NCBI GenBank assembly: GCA_963514005.1
Contig: OY740807.1
Span: 1,922,001-1,986,000 of the forward strand
Direction of reading: 5' to 3'
Length of the DNA: 64,000 nt
From: Raja brachyura
Taxonomy: Eukaryota
Shown here in pieces: positions 19,613-50,564 of this stretch (within the stretch, counting starts at the first letter, position 1; the number at the start of each line of letters is the position of its first letter). A model generated the notes under the pieces. The model was not told the DNA's origin. It worked only from the letters and a program-made list of their open reading frames with translations, and did not search any database. The translations under genes and the position numbers were made by a program.

Positions 19613-20150
19613 TCTCTCTCTCTCTTCCTCTCCCTTCTTCCTACCTATCTCTCTCCCCCTCTCTCTCCCCCCCGTCTCTCCCCACCCTCTCTCCCCCCTC
19701 TCGCCTTCCCTCTCTCACTCCCCCCCACTCNNNNNNNNNNNNNNNNNNNNNNNNNNNNNNNNNNNNNNNNNNNNNNNNNNNNNNNNNNNNNNNNNNNNNN
19801 NNNNNNNNNNNNNNNNNNNNNNNNNNNNNNNNNNNNNNNNNNNNNNNNNNNNNNNNNNNCTCTCTATATATATCCCCCTCCCTCTCTCTCTCTCTCTCCC
19901 CTCTCCACCCCCTCTCCCTATCTCCCTCTCTCTCCCTCCCCCTCTCCTTCCCTCTCACTCTCTATCTCTCCCTACCCCCTCCATCCCCCTACCCCCCTCT
20001 CCCCTCTCTCTCCCACCCTCCCCCTCTCTCTCCCCTCCCCCTCTCCCTCCCGCCCCCCTCTCTGCCTCCCCCCCTTGCCTCCCCCCCTTCTCTCCCACCC
20101 TCCCTCTCTCCATCCCTCCCTCCCCCTCCATCCACACACACAACTACAAC
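19613..20150. repeat. CT-rich low-complexity tract containing an assembly gap (N 19731-19859)
   Basis: Directly visible. Confidence 0.95.
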
Positions 20151-39400: not shown

Positions 39401-40779
39401 CCAAACCATCCAGCCCATTTACAGAATGTGTTTCCCAGTCTATTTTTGGAAAATTGAAATCTCCCACAATCACTACCTCGTGCTTACTACTAATATCTGC
39501 TATCTCCTTACATATTTGATCTTCCAATTCTCGCTCCCCAATTGGCGGTCTATAATACACCCCTAAAAGTGTTGCTACACCGTTCCCACTTCTCAGTTCC
39601 ACCCAAATAGCCTCCCTAGACGAGCCCTCGAATCTATCCTGCCAAATCACTGCTGTAATATCTTCTCTGACAAGCAATGCAAAACCTCCACCTCGGGTCC
39701 CTCCAATTCTATCACATCTGAAGCAACGAAAATTGAAGTTTTTGGCCTAAATGCAAAACGCTGTGTGTGGCAGAAAACGAACACTGCACATCACCCATAT
39801 GTATTTGGCTCCATCCATCTTCCCATCAACTCTGACCAGCTTCCCTGTCCCTGCTGAAGAAAAGCATCCCCACAGCATTATGCTGACTCCACCATGTTTT
39901 ACAGTGGGGATGGTGTGTTCAGGGTGATGTGCAGTGCTCGTTTTCTGTCACACATGGCGTTTTGCACCATCCTCCACATGTTTGCTGTGTCCTCCACATG
40001 GCCTGTGGCAAACTGCAAACAGGACTTCTTATGGCTTTGTTTCAACAATGGCTTTCTTCTTTCCACTCTTCCATAAAGGCCCGATTTGTGGAGTGCACGA
40101 CTAATAGTTGTCCTGTGGACAGATTCTCCCACCTGAGTTGTGGATCTTTGTAGCTCCTCCAGAGTTACCATGGGCCACTTGGCTGCTTCTCTGATCAATG
40201 CTCTCCTTGCCCGGCCTGTCAGTTTAGGAGGACGGCCATGTCTTGGTAGGTTTGCAGTTGTGCATGCTCTTTCCATTTTCGGATGATGGATTGAACAGTG
40301 CTCCGTGCGATGTTCAAAGCTTGGGATTTTTTTTCAAACCTCACCCTGCTTTAAACTTCTCCACAACTTTATCCCTGACCTATCTGGTGTGTTCCTTGGG
40401 CTTCGTGATGCTGTTTGTTCACTAATGTTCTCTAACAACCCTCTGAGGCCTTCACAGAACAGCTGTATTTATACTGAGATTAGATTACACACAAGTGGAC
40501 TCTATTTACTCGTGACTTCTGAAGGCAATTGGTTGCGCTGGATTTTATTTAGGGGTATCAGTGCAATGGGGGCTGAATACTTTTGCATGCCACACATTTC
40601 AGTTTTTTATTTGTACAAAAATTTGAAAACCATTTTTAATTTTCCTTCCACTTCACAATTATGCGCCACTTTGTGTTGGTCAATCACATAAAATCCCAAT
40701 AAAATACATTTACGTTTGTGGATGTAACGTGACAAAATGTGGAAAAGTAAAGGGGTATGAAAACTTTTGCAAGCCACTG
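36413..40779 (-). mobile_element. Second Tc1 IR-DR copy (same family as 11050), interrupted by a CR1
   Basis: TA-CAGTGGCTTGCAAAAG ... CTTTTGCAAGCCACTG-TA. Transposase fragments [16 protein letters not shown] and GRPPKL. Confidence 0.95.
36997..39728 (-). mobile_element. CR1 family B, 2.7 kb (EN part plus RT)
   Basis: GVYYRPP, VGDFNFP and YADDTK motifs. (GGTTATAT)n tail. TGTA is duplicated at 36993 and 39800. Confidence 0.95.
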
Positions 40780-47564: not shown

Positions 47565-47742
47565 AAGCGCCGGAAATCAGTCTCCGCCCACACAGGTTTC
47601 ATGGCCCCTCCCACTCATTACATTCCGGTTAATAAAGACAACCAGAGGCTCTGGTTTCCAGACACTGGACCCCGAGCGGCTCCCGGACTTTGCAGTACAA
47701 CACGAGTGGGTCTGAAGATTTGGTGTTCGCCTGTCCGGAAGA
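47565..47742 (+). promoter_or_regulatory. Putative IgL proximal promoter
   Basis: Directly upstream of the leader ATG. Contains CCGGAA ETS cores at 47570(+), 47623(-) and 47735(+), a GC box TCCGCCCA at 47583 and AT-rich TTAATAAA at 47629. No exact ATTTGCAT. Confidence 0.5.
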
Positions 47743-47791
47743 ATGGCCCCAGCGCTGTACCTCCTGTGGCCTCTGCTGCTGCTCCCAGCAG
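47743..47791 (+). CDS. Immunoglobulin light chain, exon 1 (leader peptide MAPALYLLWPLLLLPAG)
   Basis: ATG at 47743 is followed by 16 mostly hydrophobic codons plus 1 nt and a G|GTGAGA donor (phase 1). It splices in frame to the V exon, giving ...LLPA-G-LLA/IPVL, a typical split Ig leader. Confidence 0.88.
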
Positions 47792-47927
47792 GTGAGACTC
47801 GGGTTGGTTCACGACTGATTATCTGCAACGAGGCTCGTTAAAATCTCCACCATCGTCGGTGCTCTACGCGTGTCTAACCTTCTGTGGGCTCCAGATCACC
47901 CAGTCGTTTCATCTGTCCATAAGTGAC

Positions 47928-48141
47928 GGGCCATTCAATCTCTATCTGATCTATCTCTTTCTCCTAACCCCATTCTCCTGCCTTCTCCCCATAACCCCTG
48001 TCACCCGTACGAAACACGGATCTATCTATCTCTGCCTTAGCTTGGCCTAAACCGCCGTCTGTGGCAATTAATTCACCTCCCTTGGACTAAAGAAACTCTT
48101 CATCATCTCATTCTAAAGGAATGTCCATTAGTTCTGAGGCT
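47928..48141 (-). mobile_element. Old CR1 3' fragment in the IgL leader intron
   Basis: cctgccttctccccataacccctg...gtctgtggca...ctcattctaaagg resembles the antisense CR1 3' ends elsewhere in the window. Confidence 0.7.
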
Positions 48142-48173
48142 TTGATTAAGGTTTTCATTGTGTTTTGTTGAAG

Positions 48174-48533
48174 GTCTCCTGGCGATCCCAGTCCTGAATC
48201 AGACCCCAACGTCCGGACCTGTCTCCGCGGCACAAACCGTCCGCTTAGAGTGTCGGATGCAGAACGGAAATGTTGCAAGTTACACTGTAACTTGGTATCG
48301 ACAGCGTCCCGGGGAGAGACCAGAGCGGGTGATAAGGTATAAAACGAATAATGATATATTCCGTGGCAGTGGGATCACAGACCGGTTCCAACCGTCCAGA
48401 GATACCTCCGCCAACAGCTACATCCTGACCATCGGCACCCTGGAGCCCAGAGACGCCGCCGTCTACTACTGTGCAGTGTGGGAAAACAACGTGGGATACA
48501 TCTTCAGCCCTGGGAGTATCCTGGATATAAAGA
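48174..48533 (+). CDS. Immunoglobulin light chain, exon 2: germline-joined V-J, probably type I / sigma-cart (NS5-like) isotype
   Basis: Acceptor ttttgttgaag|GT. V-set motifs are present: IPVLNQTP, LEC, WYRQRPGE, DRF, LTI..LEPRDAAVYYC. CDR3 AVWENNVGYI runs directly into J (FSPGSILDIK), ending at the consensus donor A|GTAAGT. No heptamer/nonamer lies between V and J. The isotype call rests on remembered similarity of the N-terminus to shark type I chains. Confidence 0.95.
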
Positions 48534-49065
48534 GTAAGTGACTCCCTCGTTCTGTTCCCATGAATCCCCTTTGCAGTCGTTCTCATTCCCCAGTCCGGGA
48601 ACGCTCCGGAAAAACTTGCTCTGCCTCTACTCGGCGCGGGAGGCCATTCTGCCCATCGGGTCCGCGCCGTATGTCAGCGGTCGGGAGAGTATTCCCGCCT
48701 GCGGGGAACGCTAGCCCGCGGGGATTCCTGCATCGTTAACACAAGTCGCAGTTTGCGACAATCAAACGCGTTAATGTTGGGGAAACAAGGAAGACAATTT
48801 GCAGGCATTCTGATGAATGACATTGAGGGAAATACTGTGCAGCGGGTTGGGCAAGTCGGTTAGAGAGTGTAGCGGGAAAGGACGTGTTGGTGCGGGCTCG
48901 GGGTGTAATCCGGGATGAACCGGTCGCTTCCTCGTCTCTTCACCTCTCAATGGTTTGCGGAGCCGCGCTGCGTCCCGCCGCTCCCCTTGCGTCACTTGAC
49001 AGGGAGTGTTGGATATCCGGAGGCCTCTCCGGTACCGGTACTTCCCGCCATAACTCCTTAAAGTG

Positions 49066-49380
49066 GGTGCGGCACATTGGCTCAATGGTAGATATGTTGC
49101 CTCACTGCGCCAGATTCCCCGGTTCGAGCCTGACCTCGGGTGCTGTCTGTGTGGGGTTTGCAAGTTCTCCCTGTGACCCCGTGCGATTGCTCCGGTCCCC
49201 CCCCCCCCACATCCCAAAGACGTGCGGGTTTGGAGGTTAATTGCCCGTCGGTGAATTGCCCCGAGTGTACGGGGAGTGGGCGAGAAGCGGATATCATAGA
49301 ACTAGTGTGAACGGGTAATAATGGTCAGTGTGGACTCGGTGGGCCGAAGGGCCAGTTTCCATGCTGTGTCTCCTAAAATA
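49066..49380 (+). mobile_element. HE1/V-SINE-like SINE in the J-C intron
   Basis: tRNA-like head with A box TGGCTCAATGG and B box GGTTCGAGCC, V-domain and CR1-like tail. Confidence 0.85.
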
Positions 49381-49522
49381 GCTACATTCGCAAATTCACA
49401 TTCGAGCGAATTCCAGAGCTGGGGAATTATTGAACCCCGCAATGAAGTCGTCTCGACAGAGCGACGTAAAGCCGAGCGGCGCCAGGTGGAGGGACGGGGA
49501 CGGGGCCGGGGTGATGACGGTC

Positions 49523-49845
49523 TTTTAGTTTTAGTTCTAGTTTTAGAGACAGCCCGAAAACAGGCCCTTCGGCCACCGAGTCCACACCGACCAAAGATCC
49601 CCGCAAACGAACACTACCCTACACACACTAGGGACAATTTTACATTGATACCAAGTCAATTAACCTACACAACTGTACGTCTTAGGGGTGCGGGAGGAAA
49701 CCGAATATCTCGTAGAAAACCAACGCACACACGTCACGGTGATAAATGTACAAACTCCGTACAGACATGCACCTATATTTAGGATCCGACCCGGCTCTCT
49801 GGCGCTGTAAGACAGTTGCTCCAGCGCTGCACCACCGCGCCGCCC
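49523..49845 (-). mobile_element. HE1/V-SINE-like SINE in the J-C intron (antisense)
   Basis: (TTTTAG)n tail at the left end and head GGGCGGCGCGGTGGTGCAGCG on the minus strand. Confidence 0.85.
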
Positions 49846-49962
49846 AGTCACTGACACTTTCCGTGGCCGAGTTCGTTTCTCTCGCGTTGGGGTCAGTGTG
49901 TGGCGCTGCCGACGGTCTCCATCAACTAATGTTTCTCTTCTCCTCCGCCTCTCCACACACAG

Positions 49963-50291
49963 GTAGCGAGTCTCGGAAGCCCTCACTTCTCCTGCTCCCT
50001 CCGTCTCCGGATGAAACTGGCACGGGCTCGGCCACACTCAGCTGCCTGGTGAGCGGCTTTAAGCCGGGCTTCGTGGCGCTGCGCTGGGCCGTGGACGGCG
50101 TGGAGACGGAGAGCGGGGTGACGTCGGGCGCCGTGTCCCCGGACGCCGAACAGACGTACAGGCTGAGCAGTTACCTGCGGGTCCCCGCCGCCGCATGGGA
50201 CAAGGGCTCCAGCTATTCCTGCAGCGTCGGACATAGCTCGCTCAGCTCGCCTCTGCGACACACCGTCTCGTCGTCCACCTGCGCGAACTGA
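49963..50291 (+). CDS. Immunoglobulin light chain, exon 3 (C1-set constant domain)
   Basis: Branch-like CTAAT (49926), pyrimidine tract and cag|GT acceptor in phase 1. Motifs: PSLLLLPPS, ATLSCLVSGFKPG, W, YRLSSYL, WDKGSSYSCSVGH and a near-terminal Cys (STCAN*) for H-L linkage. Spliced CDS is 49+360+329 = 738 nt, or 245 aa plus stop, with no lesion. Confidence 0.96.
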
Positions 50292-50558: not shown

Positions 50559-50564
50559 AATAAA
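50559..50564 (+). terminator. Polyadenylation signal of the IgL gene
   Basis: First AATAAA after the stop codon (about 270 nt 3' UTR), followed by a GT/T-rich stretch (gtgtgattccattggtctatttt). Confidence 0.7.

Follow-up and report, generated by a model that had tools for sequence, protein, structure and literature searches.

Type I light-chain genes of the little skate (Leucoraja/Raja erinacea) are the closest described relatives of the gene analysed here. In the accessible part of Anderson et al. 1995 (PMC2192082) all of these genes are germline-joined, their replacement changes are concentrated in the CDRs, and at least 89 type I clusters are reported. Type I, NS5, sigma-cart and sigma-2 all name one isotype (PMC5192425, PMC4279169 and PMC5985310, in the portions available), and CDR1 and CDR2 of sigma-2 have 8 and 7 residues throughout (PMC5985310, same portion). 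In sharks the orthologous isotype, type I of the horn shark and NS5 of the nurse shark, also has one V-J-C per cluster. The homologue in the horn shark is of the split form; nurse shark NS5 comprises two split genes, one joined gene and one pseudogene, as far as the available text of PMC5192425 and PMC2193156 goes. In another isotype, nurse shark NS4 (kappa), young joined genes show RAG-like joints (Lee et al. 2000, PMC2193156, in part).

We analysed a 64-kb window of the Raja brachyura genome (the whole stretch G000:C29:1922001-1986000, C29 being a contig of the assembly). It very probably holds an intact skate sigma-2 gene that is inherited with V and J already fused, likely through RAG-type joining in an ancestor's germ cell, and that would be expressed by splicing without rearrangement. 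This is a real, intact and ordinary example of a gene kind described in 1994-95, and the initial annotation was right to call the phenomenon known, since it has been in print since 1995. Like little-skate type I, the gene has a 10-residue CDR3 and an FSPG J; its leader is one residue shorter. The assembly holds 11 sigma-2 genes, with a second joined lineage on contig C47 that has its own CDR3 and matching L. erinacea and Amblyraja models. Whereas horn shark genes are split and nurse shark genes mixed (PMC5192425, in part), no sigma-2 gene is split in this genome. Like joined NS4 genes, the gene has a fused V-J, both introns and no RSS remnant. The NS4 joins, however, are young, several, and placed beside split parents (PMC2193156, in part), whereas the join here is old and amplified, and the split form has been replaced. 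Lambda (type II, NS3) genes of cartilaginous fish are likewise always germline-joined V-J-C clusters, yet of a different isotype. UrIg and UrIg2 share the single-exon VJ and split leader, but carry several C domains, and a primitively unsplit state has been proposed for them (PMC12227049, in part), while the present gene has one CL exon, a penultimate Cys and split shark orthologues.

Structure, isotype and predicted expression

The features of the gene are listed in Table 1. The spliced CDS of 738 nt encodes 245 amino acids with both Ig disulphide pairs and the penultimate Cys, and FR3, CDR3 and the FSPG J motif lie in a single frame of a single exon. The three-exon CDS had been described as intact, and it is: the frame is open over 245 residues and the splice sites are canonical. 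A processed pseudogene, already dismissed in that description, is excluded by the retention of both introns with GT..AG ends. Pfam recognised a V-set domain (3e-16) and a C1-set domain (4e-21) in the product, which thus has an Ig light-chain layout of split leader, one V-set domain with a J motif, one C1-set domain and penultimate Cys. The J motif is FSPG and not FGxG, as it is in little-skate type I. The leader exon agrees with the N-terminus of the little-skate type I proteins. From its family membership, the 245-aa chain would be expected to pair with a heavy chain, in antibody either secreted or on the cell surface.

Table 1. Features of the sigma-2 gene and its surroundings (positions in the window).
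Feature	Position	Strand	Remarks
Inverted duplicate of window segment	5465..64000	.	copy at G000:C29 ~2.398-2.457 Mb, 99.6-99.8% identical
Conserved upstream block with TATA-like TAATAAA (47630-47636); candidate promoter	47605..47636	+	
Leader exon (split leader, phase 1, GT donor)	47743..47791	+	49 nt, ATG at 47743
Leader-V intron, GT..AG, with high-copy repeat	47792..48173	+	382 nt
Germline-joined V-J exon	48174..48533	+	360 nt, AG/GT
CDR1	48263..48286	+	8 residues, IMGT-type count
CDR2	48338..48358	+	7 residues, IMGT-type count; part varying most among copies
CDR3	48473..48502	+	10 residues
J-derived FR4 with FSPG motif and phase-1 donor	48503..48533	+	
J-C intron, GT..AG	48534..49962	+	1429 nt; kept in other genomes
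CL exon (C1-set), penultimate Cys, stop	49963..50291	+	
AATAAA, likely polyadenylation signal	50559..50564	+	

The block upstream of the leader is present in all nine copies of the gene on C29 and recognisable in both divergent genes on C47. No perfect octamer was found between 47001 and 51500. Since a scan of 18 loci, controls included, gave no perfect match near any of them, the octamer test carries no information. Within the leader-V intron, contig depth is very high at ~47950-48070. A six-frame motif scan of the rest of the window revealed no further Ig exon; the long frames at 44-60 kb resemble LINE reverse-transcriptase fragments. At 19731-19859 the window has 129 N in a row, either a mask or a gap.

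Sequence relationships identify the gene as a light chain of the sigma-2 isotype (type I, sigma-cart, NS5). Its best named single-chain match was the little-skate 'type I immunoglobulin light chain' (85% over V-J), and over the full length it is identical to the little-skate type I proteins AAA87170 and AAA87171 at 215 and 214 of 245 residues. With CDR1 and CDR2 of 8 and 7 residues by our own IMGT-type count, this agrees with the skate type I assignment made initially. A further match, P0027, is XP_051901911, which is given as sawfish IgLS2 (sigma-2) in the accessible part of PMC12227049. A search for proteins of near length gave one match, a search of representative proteins mostly multi-domain proteins, and the 60 PDB matches listed were engineered antibody constructs only. 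Within the same genome, identity of the C domain reaches only ~45% with lambda C and 43% with sigma C. Assignment to lambda was rejected, the lambda clusters sitting on contig C30 with ~45% identity in V as in C; the RefSeq name 'lambda-1-like' on sigma-2 models is an automatic label. UrIg or UrIg2 was rejected as well, since these need VJ followed by at least three C1 exons, and here a single C exon with a stop is followed by AATAAA.

As to expression, seven full-length orthologous proteins, identical at 212-217 of 245 residues, were found on Logan contigs of 981-1264 nt. These contigs are shorter than the 2.55-kb gene and are therefore likely to be spliced mRNA of a close relative. Joined genes are expressed according to the abstract of the 1995 paper (PMC2192082). 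No RNA run was among the listed carriers of this copy, which is no evidence either way. The gene itself would be expressed by splicing alone, with no rearrangement. A transcript-sized type I orthologue, P0203, has a 9-residue CDR3, one residue below the other skate sequences, which may be a germline variant or a somatic deletion.

Germline status of the join

We scanned both strands for RSS with a heptamer starting in CAC, a spacer of 12/23 ±1 and at most 3 mismatches. The full window gave only two weak matches, at 39765 and 59289, both far from the gene, and no heptamer beginning with CAC is present at 48440-48560. None of the 11 sigma-2 V loci carried a signal. As positive controls, the two split sigma V genes, one TCR-gamma-like V locus and 10 of 12 IgM-type loci all gave signals in the same scan, the remaining two IgM-type loci being fully joined. 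The reading of FR3, CDR3 and J as one exon free of RSS is confirmed to the base.

All 11 sigma-2 V matches in the assembly run on through J, each with its own C exon; nine are on C29 (1.52-2.41 Mb) and two, divergent, on C47. Used as a DNA query, J together with the 5' intron gave 13 matches, all within these 11 loci, and no free J. The nine C29 copies have one junction of equal length with point differences only, which answers the comparison of CDR3s across paralogous clusters suggested in the initial annotation.

The junction was also checked in 8 of 22 listed public DNA runs, with at least 31 letters required on each side. Single contigs bridge it gap-free in runs X3, X11, X13, X19 and X20, which represent five organism labels from five studies, and under these five other labels the joined exon has the same CDR3 length. 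In runs X1 and X5 the junction was covered, with no bridging contig among those listed, and they were not counted; X7 probably bridges it and was left out of the count. Among the loose contig ends listed at the junction, none begins with a heptamer. The C47 joined type is present in X11, X13 and X20. Both joined lineages, being found in other organisms, are thus inherited and older than Raja brachyura. The V-J join is germline. That the join is inherited and needs no somatic V-J joining therefore holds, and the joined gene is real; what does not hold is joining as an event at this copy, because one old junction, common to other species, has been multiplied by segmental duplication. The description of CDR3 as fixed is right in that there is no junctional diversity and goes too far in that somatic mutation is still possible (PMC2192082, in part).

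Duplication, exchange and origin of the join

The inverted copy of the window segment lies ~440 kb away, and its gene encodes an identical protein. This inverted duplication, at 99.6-99.8% identity, is either a palindrome of recent origin or a haplotype duplicated in error, and the 99.8% twin may be such an error. The window also shares blocks of up to 18 kb, at 93-99%, with the clusters on either side, and V-J exons are identical in three pairs (L001/L002, L003/L004 and L007/L008). Frames and splice sites are intact in 10 of the 11 sigma-2 genes, and L009 is frameshifted by a 7-nt deletion. The C exon differs by 0-3 nt among the nine C29 copies, with 4 of 324 sites variable. In a four-gamete test that kept L009, a single tree could not accommodate 513 of 946 informative site pairs, which indicates exchange between copies.

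Selection was counted on the five distinct intact V-J exons of C29, leaving out identical twins and L009. The tests are approximate, with n=5 and columns taken as independent though the copies recombine. On this footing replacement changes numbered 28 and silent ones 2 (binomial p ~0.009, approximate), and 21 of the 30 changes fall in codons 37-62. Variable sites make up 10 of 45 in CDR1 and CDR2 together, compared with 85 of 2176 in non-coding DNA (p 1e-5); in CDR3 they number 2 of 30 among the C29 copies. Replacement changes concentrate at CDR1/CDR2, a bias already described for the little skate in the accessible part of PMC2192082. Germline AID was rejected as the source of the copy differences: a WRCY/RGYW hotspot covers one of the 26 variable V-J positions, close to the chance expectation, and neighbouring changes mostly stem from different copies.

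The C47 pair (L010 and L011, G000:C47:2.236-2.417 Mb) is a second joined sigma-2 lineage that lacks the CDR3 Trp. Its V is very divergent, with 61% identity in V-J to the C29 genes, and in a quick C tree its C domain groups with them. The lineage is conserved in other skates (Amblyraja P0037, L. erinacea P0215).

Protein comparison with the horn shark allows the seam to be placed. Of nine genome models from that species, seven break off just past the residues that match the end of CDR3 (GYI/ATY), so that the V-J seam probably lies near the last two or three CDR3 codons. Horn-shark model P0012 aligns gap-free to the V-J exon at 66% identity. Among 42 matches, all 27 models from non-skate batoids have a clean Cys-CDR3-J run, with CDR3s of 8 residues in 22, 10 in four and 11 in one. 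These models are automatic protein predictions and two of the nine horn-shark models are also clean, so the batoid evidence is suggestive only that ray and sawfish sigma-2 are also joined. In a V tree of 48 rows, built without CDR3 and J and leaving out P0001, P0043, L009 and identical twins, the C29 genes of the skate form a clade (98/96) whose sister is the 10-residue class of rays, with support of just 85/79 from bootstraps that had not converged. Sigma-2-like chains of spiny dogfish (P0026, P0206-P0214; 9 of 10 read) have an 8-residue CDR3, as in the main ray class, a hint of either a joined gene or a common short V end. We found no paper on joined sigma-2 in rays, in a search that most subscription immunology journals and supplements lay outside.

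In the course of events that we propose, a single ancestral cluster of the form V-RSS...RSS-J underwent in-frame joining in a germ cell of an ancestor, likely by a RAG-type reaction. The joined cluster would then have spread by tandem and inverted duplication in units of tens of kilobases. Exchange between copies would hold C and the frameworks alike, and selection would diversify CDR1/CDR2, replacing the junctional diversity that was lost. A B cell would transcribe one or few clusters and splice leader, VJ and C, and the chain would pair with IgM or IgW through its penultimate Cys; hypermutation may later add diversity. The germ-cell RAG origin is suggested by analogy with nurse shark NS4 (PMC2193156, in part), a step borrowed from another isotype and another species. 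With no split sigma-2 parent in the genome, N/P nucleotides and trimming are unreadable. Counting against the proposal, at least 89 type I clusters are reported in the little skate versus 11 here, which may reflect either a collapsed assembly or a difference between the species.

An improbable alternative is that sigma-2 never lost a single V-J exon in batoids and bony vertebrates, the split shark genes being derived. The exon is joined in skates and in all 27 gene models from other batoids. Gar, coelacanth and turtles have joined sigma-2 as well (PMC5985310, in part), so that our proposal would need several independent joins unless sigma-2 is primitively whole. For skate type I, moreover, Lee et al. 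hold the direction of change to be 'probable, but not conclusive' (PMC2193156, in the part available). The alternative would, however, need a fresh RAG-transposon insertion at the very V/J position used by other rearranging light chains. This genome does hold split sigma clusters with an identical layout, NS4 offers documented cases of split parents that were recently joined in the germline (same part of PMC2193156), and partly and fully joined IgM clusters with differing junctions lie beside split ones here.

Joining of an ancestral split cluster without germ-cell RAG is quite improbable too. Here a deletion at microhomology, or gene conversion by cDNA of a rearranged lymphocyte transcript, would have removed the V-J spacer and left both introns; the retained introns rule out a whole retrocopy only. 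Consistent with this, the seam has no visible non-templated bases and is gap-free to the shark V end and J. The removal is, however, exact and in frame with no heptamer remnant, as in RAG joints, and partly joined V-D IgM clusters with RSS on D (L049 and L050) fit germ-cell RAG better than cDNA copying.

That a somatically rearranged allele of a lymphocyte was assembled is most improbable, given one junction in nine copies, no split sigma-2 while other Ig loci are split, and the joined exon with the same CDR3 length under five other organism labels. A silent or decaying duplicate is equally so: no RNA of this copy was seen, L009 is frameshifted and there is no perfect octamer, against which stand the intact frame and splice sites, the conserved C exon, the CDR-focused replacement excess and the spliced orthologues in a relative.

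Census of light- and heavy-chain loci and its significance

A census of light-chain V genes in the assembly gave 11 sigma-2, ~26 lambda (C30) and 2 split sigma, all lower bounds; 25 of the 26 lambda V matches span J. The split sigma clusters, the only split light-chain clusters found, are at G000:C32:20.047-20.094 Mb (L045, L046, L068), as two sigma V-RSS12 ... J-C units and a broken third C. Their J heptamer is perfect and the nonamer at least 4 mismatches from consensus (counted by eye), so that their rearrangement may be inefficient. Four C-domain queries, none of them a true shark kappa, returned no kappa among the best 150 of 234-296 candidates each, nor did a lambda V query or the 12 leftover loci inspected. 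The published NS4 FR1 primer gave 8 matches versus 6 for a control, with none of the 8 in a V frame. For the little skate, kappa is listed as not determined in the accessible part of PMC5985310. With no kappa found, nearly all light-chain clusters here look pre-joined.

Among heavy chains, fully joined IgM-type V-D-J exons in frame were seen at C24:41.94-41.95 Mb (L063, L105, L106), C9:1.060 Mb (L114) and C15:0.546 Mb (L115), the three each with a different CDR3. Out-of-frame joined exons (L064, L112) and partly joined ones (L049, L050, L057, L113) also occur. An IgM1gj-like partner was considered and rejected, because the joined C24 IgM retains all four CH exons (CH1-CH4). At G000:C8:88.18-89.24 Mb (L012-L022, L025-L027, L076) there are many single-exon VJ-type domains, ~40% identical to sigma-2 V and often a few kb apart, of which L013/L076 continues into an open frame of ~1900 codons; by their layout they are not antibody genes.

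Tentatively, and with more doubt than confidence, we suggest that the light-chain repertoire of this skate may be almost wholly inherited, with ~37 of ~39 V clusters pre-joined (11 sigma-2, ~26 lambda), kappa absent and the lone split isotype left with a degenerate J nonamer. The sigma-2 join would then be batoid-wide and its 10-residue junction older than the split between skates and stingrays/mantas, and gene conversion and selection on CDR1/CDR2 would replace junctional diversity. Together with at least 3 in-frame joined IgM V-D-J genes, this would make wholly germline-encoded antibodies without RAG possible. We found no such census in the literature, from a search that subscription immunology journals were mostly outside, so that the case for novelty is weak.

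Taken singly, the gene bears out in another skate genome what was found 30 years ago. Its value is as an entry to a countable system, in which a chromosome-scale list of pre-joined light chains enables copy-resolved RNA sequencing. It opens the question of how a B cell chooses one among dozens of ready-made light-chain genes without rearrangement as a gate, and with it the questions of how far hypermutation compensates, and how often and when RAG joining in germ cells has taken place in batoids.
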